From the NCBI GenBank assembly GCA_963790805.1, contig CAWBPL010000002.1, forward strand, positions 770,696-823,813: DNA of 53,118 bases, written 5' to 3'. Below are positions 3,420 through 46,679 of this stretch, piece after piece. The first letter of the stretch is position 1. Every line of letters starts with the position of its first letter. This DNA is from Candidatus Gottesmanbacteria bacterium (GTDB taxonomy: Bacteria; Patescibacteriota; Microgenomatia; UBA10105; UBA927). Below the pieces are notes generated by a model. It saw only the letters and a list, made by a program, of their open reading frames with translations. It was not told the origin of the DNA and did no database searches. Made by a program: the position numbers and the translations under genes.

Positions 3420-3815
3420 AGTATTTCGTGCGCTGTTTCTTCGCAAACGAAAATTTAGATTCGTCTTCAGTTTCAAATTCATACCTTACCAGATACGCTA
3501 CCCTAAAGAGAAAGTGAAGCCGAACAAAATTTTGTTTGCTCGCACACATCGCTCTTGTCCTCTGCGTATGTTTCGCGCGCTCGCTCCTTAATAAAGATTT
3601 GTGAAGAGCGCGAGGGGAATGTATTTTGAAAGACAACTTGCGCGTTTGCGCACGTATTATTGGGAGAGCTATATCGCAAACGCGCACTTAGCGAAGATGG
3701 GAATAATCTGCATAATTCATCCAAGAGCACACCGAACGGGTCTTTCAAAATACATTCCCGAACGCTCTAACACAAAAAAATTGAGAGTAGAAAGGTTGCC
3801 GGCAGGACCCGTGTT
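3420..3815. repeat. Highly structured intergenic region with nested inverted repeats
   Basis: Perfect 20-bp IR 3615-3634/3740-3759, extended by 3598-3610/3763-3777. Perfect 12-bp IR 3639-3650/3675-3686. Imperfect IR ~3444-3464/3521-3539. Confidence 0.7.
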
Positions 3816-9962: not shown

Positions 9963-20052
<10,090 letters not shown>

Positions 20053-20056
20053 ATAC

Positions 20057-20306
20057 GTGCGCCCTTTGGCGTGTGCATTTTGTGCGCATCCGTCAAGAAG
20101 GCTTGAGTCTTTTGTGAAACTAAATGCGGTTCGCGTGGCGAGGAACAAAATTATTGCAGATCGCTTCCCGAGCTTAACACAACCATGTAACATTGGCGGA
20201 TGGATTATTGCGAGCAGCGGATCAAAATAATTTTGTTACGAGCCAAAGCAAGTTTGTGAAGATCCTGCGCGTGACGGTGCTGGCAAAATGCACGCGCCGC
20301 GAGCGC
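20057..20306 (+). repeat. Structured dispersed intergenic element, copy 1 (MITE/REP-like or ncRNA)
   Basis: Nested IRs 20069-20082/20284-20297, 20086-20094/20272-20280 and 20144-20155/20226-20237. Four shared sequence blocks with the reverse complement of 44788-44996. Confidence 0.8.
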
Positions 20307-20317
20307 AATAGTTTATT

Positions 20318-22057
20318 ATGCGAGGTTTATATTTTTGGCGGGGAATAGGAATTTCACTTCTCATCGTCGGCATTTTCCTTTATAGCTTTATACTTCATAT
20401 CGGCGAGCCGTTGTCACTCATCCATAACGATGCATTTCAGACGCAGTTTATCCTCAAACATTACGCTGATGTTGTAAAAACCGGTAACTGGAAGTCTATT
20501 ACAAATCTGCCGATGCTGTACGGGTATCCCGACGCACTTTTATTAAACGAACATTTCATCGTTCAGGCCGTTATTGCAGTGCCGATCTATCTGTTAAGCG
20601 GCAACGTCAACCTTATGTATAGCGTTACGGCCATAGCGGTTCTTATATTTTCCTTTTGGGCGATGTATCTTCTGGCTTTGCATGTCACGCATAACGTGTG
20701 GGCGGCTATCGTATCTTCGATTGTGTATGTTCTGAACCCCTTTGTCTTTGCGCGGTTTCCGGATCATCTCAATCTCGTTACACTCGGGTTTATTCCTCTT
20801 ATAATTCTGTTTATTGAAAAATCGTTTGAAAAGCCGACGGCAAAACGCGTGTTTTTAGTATTTTTGTTTATTACGTTCCAGATATTGTGCTCGTGGTATT
20901 ACGCCGCGTTTTTGACGGTTGTCCTTCCTATTTACATTGTGATCCGTCTATATCAGCGCCGTAGCGCAATCCTGCCATATATAAACAGGGGACTCATTGC
21001 GGGTGTCATCCTTCTGGGTCTGGTAAGCTTCGGAACGTGGAAGCTCTATACTCCTTTGCTGAACGGATATAAAGAGAATAGTCAGCAGGAACAGCTGTTT
21101 TATACCGTGTTTGCGGCATGGCCGACGGATTGGCTCTTTACGGCTCCGAACAATGTGATTTACGGTCAGGTCCGCCAAACCGTTGCAAGTAAATATCCGA
21201 ATTTGGTCCACAAAGGCAACGCTTCGGAGGAAAATCTTTTTTGGGGAATTGTGCCACTCATCCTGTTTCTTTTGAGTTTTTCAATCGTCCGTCAGTCAAA
21301 AAAATACCGGTCGATCTGGATTGTTGAGACGATCCTTCTTGTCTTGAGTTTCCTCCTTTCCTTCGGACCGGTCATTCGCTTCACATCTACCGTTTCGATC
21401 CCAAACATATATAATTTTTTTGAGCGGATTGATCCGATACTAAGCTTTACGCGTGTCACGGCACGCTGGGCTGTATTTGTATTTTTCTTTTTGGCGCTTA
21501 TTGTCGGGGAAACGGTTGAAGTGCTCGTAAACAACAAGCGGGTGAAAAAAGCGTGGGCGGTGGGGGCGCTTGTTGTTGTTGCAATTCTTCTGGATTATTG
21601 GAATAGTCCGATGACATTTATGACTATTGGGCAAAGTACGGTACAGTTCTATAACAAGGTAAAGAATGATGCCGCGATTCACGTACTTCTTGACCTTCCG
21701 ATCGGCAACAAACTGCCCGCAGGGTCGTCGGGAGCCCGCGCCGAGTATCTCGATGCGCACTATATGTTTTGGGCTTCCAGCTTGCACGGAAAAGCGCTTT
21801 TTAACGGATATACGGCATTTATGCCACTGACCTATTATGAAGTCGCCGATGAGCTTTCAACGGCTCCGCTGACCTCGGAATCTGTTTCTTGGCTGGCTTC
21901 AAACGGTATCGATGCGATTGTTCTTCATAGAGACGAATATCCCTATCAGGGAGACTATTTTACCCAGCGCGCGACGCTTCGTCTGCTTAAAGTTCCGATG
22001 AAATATTCAACAGACTCGCTTGCGCTTTTTGACATAACTTCGTACAAAGGGAAGTGA
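20318..22057 (+). CDS. GT-C-superfamily polytopic glycosyltransferase-like membrane protein (YfhO-like)
   Basis: About 11-12 TM. Acidic first loop (HNDAFQTQ...YPDALLLNEH), VYVLNPFVFAR, and a periplasmic tail with LFNGYTAF...IVLH. Confidence 0.65.
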   Translation: MRGLYFWRGIGISLLIVGIFLYSFILHIGEPLSLIHNDAFQTQFILKHYADVVKTGNWKSITNLPMLYGYPDALLLNEHFIVQAVIAVPIYLLSGNVNLMYSVTAIAVLIFSFWAMYLLALHVTHNVWAAIVSSIVYVLNPFVFARFPDHLNLVTLGFIPLIILFIEKSFEKPTAKRVFLVFLFITFQILCSWYYAAFLTVVLPIYIVIRLYQRRSAILPYINRGLIAGVILLGLVSFGTWKLYTPLLNGYKENSQQEQLFYTVFAAWPTDWLFTAPNNVIYGQVRQTVASKYPNLVHKGNASEENLFWGIVPLILFLLSFSIVRQSKKYRSIWIVETILLVLSFLLSFGPVIRFTSTVSIPNIYNFFERIDPILSFTRVTARWAVFVFFFLALIVGETVEVLVNNKRVKKAWAVGALVVVAILLDYWNSPMTFMTIGQSTVQFYNKVKNDAAIHVLLDLPIGNKLPAGSSGARAEYLDAHYMFWASSLHGKALFNGYTAFMPLTYYEVADELSTAPLTSESVSWLASNGIDAIVLHRDEYPYQGDYFTQRATLRLLKVPMKYSTDSLALFDITSYKGK

Positions 22058-43842: not shown

Positions 43843-44526
43843 ATGCCTGCCAAAGCACCATCCAAGAAGTCATCCAAGCGAACGGTTAAAAAGATTGTTA
43901 AACCGCAGCCGGAGGTATCAGTACAGCCGGAAACACAAGCTCCTCAACCTCCTCCAGTGGAAGCCGCTCCTTCGCCTCATGTCGTAGAGCCGCCTCACCC
44001 GCCGGTCGCTGCGCCGGTAGCGGTTACGTCGACCGCGCAGGATCTGGAGCAATTTTTAGCCAGTGAACCGGAAGATGAAAAAGCAAATCGCGCCAACACA
44101 GTTCTTTTAGTTTTTGGAGCTCTTTTTGCCGGCATTATCATCGTTGCCTCCATTGCGGTTTTTATTATTTACACGCATTCATCAACGATTTTTGTTCCGA
44201 CGCTTTCCAACAAACCGGTGCCTACTCTCAGCCCGACGCCAACTGTATCGAAGTCGTCGATAACATTTGAAGTATTTAATGCAACCGGAGTATCGGGTCT
44301 CGCGGCAAAGGATGCGCAAGAGCTGACCAGTGCAGGGTATACCGTGTTAACTGTCGGGAGCAAAAAAAGACAGACTGCGACACAATTATTTGTTGCGGGT
44401 TCAGTTCCGGCGGCTTCGCTGAACGAGCTGCTTGCTGACACGAGCTCTCTCTTTTCGATCGCGAGCGTTACCGGAGTCCTCACGGATTCCACTGCCTCTG
44501 CCCGACTCATTTTGGGTGCCAAGTAA
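43843..44526 (+). CDS. Single-TM protein with LytR C-terminal domain
   Basis: Pro-rich N-terminus, one TM, PT linker, EVFNATGVSGLAAK...AGY and LILG motifs. Confidence 0.8.
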   Translation: MPAKAPSKKSSKRTVKKIVKPQPEVSVQPETQAPQPPPVEAAPSPHVVEPPHPPVAAPVAVTSTAQDLEQFLASEPEDEKANRANTVLLVFGALFAGIIIVASIAVFIIYTHSSTIFVPTLSNKPVPTLSPTPTVSKSSITFEVFNATGVSGLAAKDAQELTSAGYTVLTVGSKKRQTATQLFVAGSVPAASLNELLADTSSLFSIASVTGVLTDSTASARLILGAK

Positions 44527-44787: not shown

Positions 44788-44996
44788 TTGGTGCGCGGGA
44801 AGCTTTGCATTTTGCCCAGCACCGTCATTGCGCCGATCGCAATGAAATTGTTTTGTTCCGCTGCTCGCAATAGGCTGAACTGTTATTCGCCATATATTGT
44901 TTAGCTCGATCAAGCGAACTGCAACAATTTCACTCCGCTCGTCGCTGGAAGCACTGACGGATGCGCACAAACTGCAAAGCGACCAAAGCGCACCAA
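44788..44996 (-). repeat. Structured dispersed intergenic element, copy 2, with 9-bp terminal IR
   Basis: TTGGTGCGC 44788-44796 / GCGCACCAA 44988-44996, nested IRs, and homology to 20057-20306 in the opposite orientation. Confidence 0.8.
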
Positions 44997-45011: not shown

Positions 45012-46679
45012 ATGAACATTTTGGGAATTTCCTGCCACTATCATGAGGCCGCGGCAGCTCTTCTTACCGACGGAAAAATCGTCGCGGCGGCGGCCGAGGA
45101 GCGGTTCACCCGAAAGAAACACGACCCTTCGTTTCCCGACCGAGCGATAGATTTTTGTTTAGCTCAGGCGAAACTTAGTGCAAAAGACACTGATTACGTC
45201 GCTTTTTATGAAAAGCCGCTCATCAAGTTTGAGCGCACTCTCACAGTCAGCATGACCGAATTTCCCCGCGGCCTCGGATTTTTTGTTGAGGGGATGAAAA
45301 ACGCATTCGCGGAAAAATTATGGATTCAATCGGCGATTATCAATAAACTGGATATACCGGCCCAGCGGATTTTTTTTGTTCCGCAGCACCTTTCACACGC
45401 AGCCGCCGCGTATTACCCTTCGCCGTTTCGCAAAAGTGCGTATGTGACGCTTGATGCGGTCGGAGAATGGACGACGGGAAGTTGGGGAGTGGGTAACGGT
45501 ATAAAACTTACTCCCAAAGCAGAGCTCAGATTTCCTCATTCCGTGGGGCTCCTGTACTCGACGTTCACTGCATATCTGGGGTTTGAAGTAAACGACGGAG
45601 AATTTAAAGTCATGGGCATGGCGGCCTATGGCAGACCAAAATACGCCGATCGCATTAAAAAACTGTACCGTCAATTCCCCGACGGATCGATTGAACTCAA
45701 TCTTCGTTATTTTGCATTTCACCATAGCAACAAACGCATGTATACGAAAGACTTTGAAGATCTGTTTGCCGGTTGCGACCGGTACGATTTGGGAGCCAGC
45801 ATTCAGAAATGCACCGAGGAAATCATTCTTCGCATGATGCGATATGTTCATACGCAAACGCATGAAGATAATCTGGTTTTTGGCGGAGGAGTGGCGTTAA
45901 ACAGCGTTGTGAATGGCTTAGTGACGCGGGAAACGCCGTTTAAACATCTGTTTATTTTTCCGGCTGCGGGGGATGACGGCGGGTCGGCCGGCGCCGCACT
46001 GTATGCGTATCACCACGTGTTGGAGAATGTCAATCGATGCCCGTTAACGCATGTATTTTTCGGGCCTCACTATACCAACGATACGATTCGTCAATATCTG
46101 GAAAATACGCACCTTCGCTATCGGCGCATGAGTGACACGATCCTTATAGATTTCATAGCAAACCAGTTAGCGCACGGAAAGATTGTCGGATGGTTTGAGG
46201 GACGATCGGAATTTGGTCCCAGAGCGCTTGGACACCGGTCGATTCTTGCTGATCCAAGAACCAAAGAAATGAAGGATATCGTGAATGCCCGGATAAAATT
46301 TCGGGAGGAATTTCGCCCGTTTGCACCGGTCGTATTGTCGCGATTTGCAAAGAAGTATTTTGATGTTACGGAAGATGCTCTTTCGCCCTATATGGTCGGG
46401 ACATTTAATGCCCTGCCAATCGCCCGAAAACAGGCGCCGGCAGTCGTTCATGAAGACGGAACGAGCCGGATTCAAACGGTAGACAAAAAAAAATACCCAG
46501 GCAGATATGCCAGACTTCTTGAGTCGTTTTACAAAAAAACCCGAGTTCCTGTTCTTTTGAATACTTCATTTAACCTGAAAGGCGAGCCGATCGTCGAGAC
46601 GCCTCATGATGCAATTTCAACCTTCGTGAGAAGCGGGCTGGATATACTTGTACTTGAAAATTTTATTCTGTCGAAGTAG
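45012..46679 (+). CDS. Carbamoyltransferase (NodU/CmcH/SxtI family)
   Basis: MNILGIS..HEAAAAL...EERFTRKKH, HLSHAAAAYY, GGVALN, EFGPRALGHRS, FRPFAP and LNTSFN motifs. Confidence 0.93.
   Translation: MNILGISCHYHEAAAALLTDGKIVAAAAEERFTRKKHDPSFPDRAIDFCLAQAKLSAKDTDYVAFYEKPLIKFERTLTVSMTEFPRGLGFFVEGMKNAFAEKLWIQSAIINKLDIPAQRIFFVPQHLSHAAAAYYPSPFRKSAYVTLDAVGEWTTGSWGVGNGIKLTPKAELRFPHSVGLLYSTFTAYLGFEVNDGEFKVMGMAAYGRPKYADRIKKLYRQFPDGSIELNLRYFAFHHSNKRMYTKDFEDLFAGCDRYDLGASIQKCTEEIILRMMRYVHTQTHEDNLVFGGGVALNSVVNGLVTRETPFKHLFIFPAAGDDGGSAGAALYAYHHVLENVNRCPLTHVFFGPHYTNDTIRQYLENTHLRYRRMSDTILIDFIANQLAHGKIVGWFEGRSEFGPRALGHRSILADPRTKEMKDIVNARIKFREEFRPFAPVVLSRFAKKYFDVTEDALSPYMVGTFNALPIARKQAPAVVHEDGTSRIQTVDKKKYPGRYARLLESFYKKTRVPVLLNTSFNLKGEPIVETPHDAISTFVRSGLDILVLENFILSK

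Follow-up and report, generated by a model that had tools for sequence, protein, structure and literature searches.

The two copies of a dispersed element in the window (the whole analysed stretch of 53,118 nucleotides, C2:770696-823813 of a 1.25-Mb, two-contig assembly that is 84% complete) are probably, at about 60% by our estimate, composites of non-autonomous, structure-defined hairpin elements that act as single-stranded DNA at the replication fork and not as RNA. Single-stranded DNA at the fork is suggested because the polarity of the elements ignores transcription and tracks replication. They behave as selfish elements rather than as RNA genes, and an RNA gene or a riboswitch is unlikely. 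A preliminary description of the two copies had reported sequence blocks shared in the same order and paired differences in the stems. The blocks are present as described, the paired differences are real in both the outer and the inner stems, and the similarity between the copies is far beyond chance. The hairpin family is larger and more modular than that two-copy description.

Copy 1 (20057-20308, + strand) occupies the entire spacer between the stop codon (20050-20052) of a collagen-like fibre gene and an ATG at 20318. Copy 2 (44790-44994, - strand) is located in the spacer between a LytR_C gene (43843-44526) and a carbamoyltransferase gene (ATG at 45012); both neighbours are on the + strand, and copy 2 is antisense to both. 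The nhmmer E-values are 1.5e-83 for copy 1 and 7.1e-58 for copy 2, both of which were among the four copies used to build the profile. Each copy folds into a single long interrupted hairpin, with z-scores of -2.95 (copy 1) and -5.88 (copy 2) on the given strand and -4.84 and -4.96 on the opposite strand. The outer module, here called the frame, was delimited in copy 1 by alignment and pair counts. Its 5' arm (20057-20095, + strand) consists of P0 (GTGCGC, 20057-62), the loop CCTTTGG, S1 (CGTGTGCATTTTG, 20070-82), the loop TGCGCAT and S2 (CCGTCA, 20090-95), and its 3' arm (20272-20308) of S2' (TGACGG, 20272-77), the loop TGCTGG, S1' (CAAAATGCACGCG, 20284-96), the loop CCGCGA and P0' (GCGCA(A)). 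On the - strand, the frame of copy 2 has the 5' arm GGTGCGC-TTTGGTC-GCTTTGCAGTTTG-TGCGCAT-CCGTCA (44955-44994) and the 3' arm TGACGG-TGCTGGG-CAAAATGCAAAGC-TTCCC-GCGCACC (44790-44827). Copy 1 thus has the outer stem CGTGTGCATTTTG/CAAAATGCACGCG and the inner stem ACAAAATTATT/AATAATTTTGT; the corresponding stems of copy 2 are GCTTTGCAGTTTG/CAAAATGCAAAGC (outer) and GTGAAATTGTT/AACAATTTCAT (inner). The inner module, core A, spans 20133-20251 (+ strand) in copy 1 including a foot of its own, as judged from the covariance model, the covariation and the foot, with the layout GCGT-GGCGA-[P1 ...] ... [... P1']-GAGCCAAA-GC; the covariance-model match itself covers 20137-20244 (115.3 bits). Core A of copy 2 is matched at 44834-44941 (- strand, 98 bits), and its fold with DNA parameters is stabler on that strand (-23.6 kcal/mol) than on the complementary one (-17.7).

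Two further features of the window were recorded. The fibre gene upstream of copy 1 is an open reading frame of 2,652 codons (12094-20052, + strand) with ~4.3 kb of 9-nt-periodic Gly-X-Y repeats followed by terminal H_lectin and SH3_3 domains, and it dominates the repeat-finder output for the window. A perfect 20-nt inverted repeat (GGGAATGTATTTTGAAAGAC) at 3615-3634 and 3740-3759, with a 105-nt spacer, is unrelated to the hairpin family.

Further copies, for which the preliminary description had proposed a search, do exist: BLAST, nhmmer (with a profile from four full copies) and covariance models reveal ~16 loci in the 1.25-Mb genome from which the window comes (the home genome). They comprise four composites of frame and core A, among them copies 1 and 2, six core A units alone, and six frames alone or with other cargo. 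Three of these six frames stand alone (~115-135 nt). The other three are located at C2:640640-640916, 571018-571298 and 699937-700220 and enclose either core B (~170 nt; two copies) or core C (the copy in ComEC). A frame model later added two frame copies to the ~16 loci. The core A covariance model, built from ten copies of the home genome, has exactly ten matches there, the E-values of such home-made models being rough. A composite consists of an outer frame of ~118 nt that encloses a core A of ~108 nt in opposite orientation, and each of the two modules also occurs alone. All units form hairpins and are 108-250 nt long. In the frame, the P0 helix and a 7-nt/5-nt loop are followed by the 13-bp S1, of which the first 8 bp vary between copies; the TGCGCAT/TGCTGG loop beyond it is conserved, and the CCGTCA/TGACGG stem comes last. 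In core A, P1 (12 bp, A/T-rich) is joined by a GATC-GC/GC-G-GATC helix in which one G is bulged, a tandem G.A step (CGAG/CGAG) and an apex that varies. Similarity among the four composites is 78-85%, so the composite itself was copied. The best copy pairs of the home genome are 85-92% identical; none are near-identical, so there is no sign of recent movement.

Frame and core A share a foot with the consensus 5' GCGC-GRGGA-[stem] ... [stem]-GACCAAA-GCGC 3', defined by inspection and column consensus. It consists of a GCGC/GCGC helix and an asymmetric loop, followed by a long A/T-rich stem. Because a GA on each strand abuts the stem, the two could form a tandem G.A. For core A of relatives and metagenomes, the sequences just outside P1 are 5' GCGC-G(R)(N)GA and 3' GA(N)C(N)AAA-GCGC. 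The frame arms of copy 1 show the foot on the reverse complement, as 5' GCGC-...-[stem] ... [stem]-...AAAGG-GCGC, and two other frames read in the same way are GAGCGC-GAGGA-GGTGTACG...CGTACACC-GACCAAA-GCAC and CGCG-GGGA-GGCTCAC...GCGCC-GACCAAA-GCG. As frame and core A carry the same foot, a composite can be described as an outer foot-bearing hairpin with an oppositely oriented foot-bearing hairpin inside. A third foot-bearing hairpin module at C2:169803-169920 (- strand), TAGCGC-GGGGA-GGCTTGCCGT...ACGGCAAGAC-GACCGACA-GCGCTA, has an interior that is unrelated to frame or core A. A regular-expression scan for the foot was too degenerate (5 matches vs 2 in shuffles), and the 9-mer GACCAAAGC is not over-represented genome-wide (10 vs ~9 expected), with 4 of the 10 occurrences within known copies. 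A likeness of the foot to a K-turn is not claimed, the unpaired bases being on the wrong side for a simple K-turn.

The earlier proposal that structure is maintained holds for both modules, in which the stems covary to a degree that 0 of 500 shuffles reach. In 43 core A sequences, 96.5% of the cells are paired and both-sided changes occur in 21 of 22 pairs; ten frames give 93.9% and 14 of 25, respectively, and since the alignments were fitted to or derived from the same sequences, the paired percentages are biased towards the model structure. Slid-register controls are only 33-53% paired, thus the covariation signal is register-specific. The tandem G.A step of core A is replaced by CGCG/CGCG (C-G/G-C) in one copy and by CGAA/TGAG in another, which indicates that these positions face each other. 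Outermost helices of the frames differ freely among copies (GCGC, GATAC, GACGC, TTGCAC) yet stay paired. The basal stems and loops are far better conserved across genera, at non-orthologous loci, than the variable apex. A tree of the 43 inner modules was poorly resolved, with the sister family as the sole supported clade (98) and weak clustering by genome.

Wobble pairs distinguish the two strands of core A. G.U outnumbers A.C by 41 to 9 in the first set and by 28 to 4 in an independent metagenome set (32 copies, 30 distinct, recovered by sequence pattern without the stems), or 69 to 13 combined. Because G.U so far exceeds A.C, one strand is the folding strand. This strand is also the stabler one, with -33.6 vs -30.4 kcal/mol and the difference in its favour in 49 of 70 copies (p = 1.5e-6, RNA parameters), and with DNA parameters in 8 of the 10 copies tried. 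For the frames, the counts on the foot-orientation strand (G.U 24 vs A.C 16) are not decisive.

Such features are shared with structured non-coding RNAs, and a new family of this kind was one of the two alternatives in the preliminary description. The elements would then be small RNA genes or cis-regulatory leaders of downstream genes, in line with the covariation, the G.U tolerance of one strand, the tandem G.A motifs, the conserved internal loops and the position of copy 1 immediately upstream of a same-strand gene. However, the position of copy 2, antisense to both neighbours, does not fit, and the neighbour genes of the copies are unrelated to each other. Rfam 15 has no match at the gathering threshold across the window, with chance-level matches only at E up to 10 for copy 1; the absence of a described family had been noted before and is borne out here. 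Promoter and terminator scans at the copies gave weak and inconsistent matches only. Moreover, many copies are translated in frame (see below), and orientation to host genes is random: 26 copies are sense and 23 antisense, made up of 16 and 15 where the flanking genes are co-directional and of 10 and 8 where the copy is intragenic. This even distribution rules out leaders and riboswitches and speaks against roles that need transcription within the host mRNA. A replication-tracking polarity has no obvious RNA rationale either. Therefore, the RNA explanation is not upheld and we consider it very improbable.

In the home genome, cumulative GC skew has its minimum at ~415 kb and its maximum at ~1,125 kb, dnaA is located at 422 kb and the gene-strand bias switches at the skew extremes. 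Skew minimum, dnaA and gene-strand bias together fix the origin. The leading strand is the G-rich strand, as is usual. GC skew on the folding strand, taken over as much as 4 kb to either side without the element itself, is negative around 67 of 73 distinct core A copies (mean -0.087; sign test p = 4e-14). Of the coding bases in these flanks, only 48% have the same orientation as the folding strand, and skew is negative within co-oriented genes (44/52, mean -0.077) as well as within opposite ones (53/57, mean -0.084). Thus, the polarity of core A is not a transcription effect. For the frames, 34 of 41 copies have a positive skew on the strand that corresponds to that of copy 1 (p = 2.5e-5), so that frames read in foot orientation obey the core A rule. 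In copy 1 the frame has the regular orientation and core A is reversed; in copy 2 it is vice versa. The folding, foot-oriented strand is the C-rich strand, i.e., the leading-strand template, and has the sequence of the nascent lagging strand, with replication direction in relatives read from local GC skew only. The third foot-bearing module does not follow the orientation rule (flank skew +0.075).

For the preferred reading, hairpins acting as single-stranded DNA at the fork, we infer the following course of events. The propagating machinery would recognise the foot, that is, the GCGC/GCGC helix and the asymmetric loop with the tandem G.A beside the stem. The orientation bias could then arise in either of two ways: the hairpin strand may come in together with the nascent lagging strand or be inserted into it; alternatively, copies with the stable hairpin on the lagging-strand template may be excised or deleted, so that only the 'quiet' orientation survives. 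Trinh and Sinden reportedly found in 1991 that asymmetric palindromes are preferentially deleted when the stabler hairpin is on the lagging-strand template. Insertion might occur anywhere, and intragenic copies would persist only when they are in frame and add a tolerated loop. Covariation would result from selection among copies for propagating or persisting as a hairpin, and a host function would not be needed.

Polarity of this kind also invites comparison with integron attC sites. Like these elements, attC sites are defined by structure and not by sequence, fold on one strand and have unpaired or extrahelical features. In sedentary chromosomal integrons, the reactive attC strand belongs to the leading-strand template in 25 of 30 integrons, where it folds less often and cassettes are stabler (PMC5371416). 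However, attC sites form cassette arrays beside an integrase gene and have R and L boxes, whereas the elements described here are dispersed single units, also within genes, and have a different foot.

Single-strand transposons are the second comparison. IS200/IS605 and REP/BIME-RAYT elements resemble the hairpins in their strand-specific fold and in the fork-coupled, genome-wide orientation bias, with folded single-stranded DNA as the form that would be common to all (PMC5027513, PMC3333891). A Y1 (HUH) transposase or RAYT encoded elsewhere might thus act on the hairpins as its non-autonomous substrates and move them by single-strand peel-and-paste at the fork. Strand-specific folding and replication-coupled orientation are as in IS608 (PMC5027513), and Y1_Tnp is common in the class: 62 of 81 Microgenomatia-type genomes contain Y1_Tnp-like genes (~200-270 residues), and as many as 14 copies are present in a ~1-Mb genome. 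Nevertheless, Y1_Tnp (PF01797) is absent from the three genomes of the genus (G000, which is the home genome, G001 and G002) and from G033 and G080, all of which carry the elements. Across the 81 genomes Y1_Tnp is not associated with core A (15 of 20 genomes with core A vs 47 of 61 without), and no core A was found within ~1.5 kb of any of the 24 Y1 loci examined in element-bearing genomes. The polarity is also the opposite one. IS200/IS605 elements excise from and insert into the lagging-strand template (PMC5027513), on which their active strand lies, whereas the folding strand of the hairpins is on the leading-strand template. Finally, the hairpins consist of one long hairpin with a foot, unlike the subterminal hairpins of IS200/IS605 or the 20-40-nt REPs. 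On this evidence a Y1-driven explanation is rather improbable.

The preliminary description had suggested a non-autonomous element moved by an HUH/REP-type or DDE transposase. Its first part agrees with the many copies, their presence or absence at orthologous sites, the nesting and the patchy distribution, but the enzymes proposed were not found among the families searched: no co-occurring transposase was detected, as Y1/HUH, rve and DDE_Tnp_1, and likewise TnpB and RVT_1, are absent from all three genomes of the genus. For the home genome alone this absence is weak evidence because the assembly is 84% complete; it is strengthened by the agreement of three genomes. An autonomous partner with the same ends was not seen either, since all profile and model matches in the home genome are complete short units and none of them are paired around a longer, gene-sized insert.

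These results also bear on a TIR-type MITE, mobilised as double-stranded DNA by cut-and-paste of a DDE transposase, in which the 'compensatory' changes would reflect both repeats tracking the specificity of one transposase. Terminal inverted complementarity, small size, many copies and nesting are all reminiscent of MITEs, for which insertion of one into another is known (PMC10969869). However, no target-site duplication is visible at 10 frames, the outermost helices vary freely while staying paired, and an excess of G.U over A.C is not expected from recognition of a duplex. Neither rve nor DDE_Tnp_1 occurs in the genus, a longer element with the same ends was not found, and strong replication polarity is atypical of cut-and-paste DDE elements. 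We regard this as the least probable of the explanations weighed here. Correia, ERIC and BOX/RUP/SPRITE MITEs, which form RNA/DNA hairpins, are, like the present elements, non-autonomous, ~100-200-bp imperfect palindromes that are mostly intergenic, now and then intragenic, and nest (PMC10969869). In such MITEs the TIRs are defined, duplications are usual, a cognate IS is known in several cases, and effects have been documented at the promoter, RNase III or RNase E level, whereas no duplication, cognate IS or transcription-linked orientation was found for the hairpins.

Insertions are found within genes as well as between them. In total, 18 of 74 copies are intragenic. Among relatives, 13 of 33 copies are inside long ORFs, in either orientation and with a fixed single frame per orientation, and encode, depending on the sense, either the peptide K[IF]FA[DA]RF[SP]SL...ASSGAKKF or NF[LF]DPLL...AK.EKRSAKILS. 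Alignment to orthologues of the home genome, which have no insert, shows clean in-frame inserts of ~27-36 residues in LeuRS, a Glu/Leu-dehydrogenase-type enzyme and several membrane proteins of the relatives. The home genome itself has one core A copy in frame within an Amino_oxidase flavoenzyme gene and one frame-plus-cargo copy in ComEC, which splits the ComEC Pfam match. In a six-frame check, intergenic copies have stops in all frames; the element is therefore not intrinsically open. Empty sites, which the preliminary description had listed among its checks, were found for several intergenic copies of relatives, where the home genome has a short empty spacer between the same two genes. G003, which is syntenic at both window loci, has neither frame nor core A; its spacers orthologous to those of copies 1 and 2 are unalignable and hence give no exact boundaries. 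A precise empty/filled pair at nucleotide resolution was not obtained, and target-site duplications were not seen by eye at the ends of 10 frames or of core A copies, where short ones may escape. At the place of the home-genome composite upstream of the carbamoyltransferase gene, G003 has a ~5x tandem CTACAAC that abuts the start codon (L210, G003:C4). An extra ~37 residues in the carbamoyltransferase of G001 and G002 are not a hairpin module.

In this behaviour, the elements are closest to the Rickettsia palindromic elements (RPEs), in the sense that they work like RPEs and not that they belong to them. RPEs are short (100-150 bp) palindromic repeats of several families, which are intergenic and often in frame in unrelated housekeeping genes (PMC10969869). 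Both groups are palindromic, are located between genes or in frame where they add a peptide loop, have no transposase so far and occur in small genomes (PMC10969869). The likeness is one of behaviour, with RPEs in Alphaproteobacteria and the present elements in CPR bacteria, and the latter differ by a defined common foot, nesting, a strand-specific fold and replication polarity. We know of no report of a common foot or nesting, a strand-specific fold or replication polarity for RPEs. By the features tested, the elements are not members of the RPEs, the nesting MITEs, the single-strand transposons or the attC sites.

In LeuRS, the dehydrogenase-type gene and one membrane protein, the same sites are filled in distant genomes of two families. 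This fits ancient vertical inheritance with maintained structure, a site preference, or repeated transposition equally. Third-position identity of same-site copies (0.42-0.57) is slightly above that of the flanks (0.34-0.49), and because it barely exceeds them, ancient orthology and re-insertion are not separable by this comparison. Basal conservation together with the shared sites leaves room for a role that could be host-level or very long-lived. One such role would be that of polar DNA sites, polar like Chi or KOPS, which serve the host, e.g., in fork processing, recombination or chromosome organisation, and have spread secondarily. Extreme replication-linked polarity, basal stems and loops that are conserved across genera under a variable apex, and occupation of the same sites in two families are what such sites would show. 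However, the distribution is patchy (20/81 genomes for core A and 15/81 for the frame), with only 1-15 copies per genome, copies within essential genes, like the empty sites in orthologous positions, sit uneasily with a site that is required, and one orthologous site of the home genome has an apparent decayed remnant of the element peptide. A host-serving site is thus distinctly improbable.

Several loci deserve separate mention. The genes for a 633- and an 877-residue membrane protein (C2:635096-639836 in the home genome; orthologues L037, L038, L049 and L086) form a hot spot with elements at at least four places across genomes, namely in the spacer and in protein loops (two in the 877-residue and one in the 633-residue protein). 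In the home genome, the frame model detects a further copy inside the 877-residue gene (636924-637045). At C2:646150-646290, where a relative has an insertion in a membrane protein, the home genome encodes RGDKNISDSLPAG...AKQSLRI, which resembles a decayed element peptide and suggests, as far as sequence likeness can tell, that old insertions decay in place. The LeuRS gene of the home genome (C2:696121-698587) is split into pieces in different frames; these apparent frameshifts are probably assembly indels rather than biology.

A bolder version of the single-stranded DNA reading is a previously unrecognised replicator, in which a single-stranded hairpin held at its foot is joined into the nascent lagging strand at the fork, either by a dedicated enzyme that binds the foot or even by nothing more than host ligation and repair. 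Excision, or uptake of single-stranded DNA through ComEC, might supply the single strands. If true, this would account for the lack of both a transposase and target duplications, for a near-universal polarity in which the hairpin strand has the lagging-strand sequence, for the nesting of modules with nothing in common but the foot, and for a steady supply of new loops in CPR proteins. At present, we see it as a doubtful possibility.

CPR/Patescibacteria have genomes of ~1 Mb, and to our knowledge no transposable-element families have been described in them; a literature search for palindromic elements and MITEs in CPR bacteria found nothing relevant. The present data indicate that CPR genomes carry structure-defined hairpin families which write extra loops into housekeeping proteins and are a possible source of unexplained insertions in CPR proteins. 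The shared foot provides a concrete handle for finding the machinery. Replication polarity (92% for core A and 83% for the frame) is a quantitative signature that separates explanations at the DNA level from those at the RNA level, and it offers a way to look again at how RPE-like elements in general move, a long-unsolved question. For annotation, the genuine covariation makes it easy to take the elements for riboswitches or small RNAs.

The elements are confined to Gottesmanbacteria-like CPR bacteria. With the covariance model, core A was detected in 20 of 81 related genomes at 1-10 copies each (14/49 of the same family, 6/6 of the sister family and 2/26 other genomes of the class). The frame occurs in 15 of the 81, with up to 15 copies of typically 115-122 nt. 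The two distributions overlap only partly; G032 and G035, for example, have frames without core A. Viral contigs had no match to the core pattern. A further 32 core A copies were found in metagenome contigs. The contigs that carry the element are labelled Candidatus Gottesmanbacteria or "Patescibacteria group" MAGs, with a few labelled Gammaproteobacteria. The latter are MAGs named 'uncultured Gammaproteobacteria bacterium' (L051, L052, L076, L081 and L086). L076 and L081 share their contig coordinates with matches in G002, which belongs to the same genus as the window, and the Gammaproteobacteria labels on these element-bearing MAGs are probably wrong.
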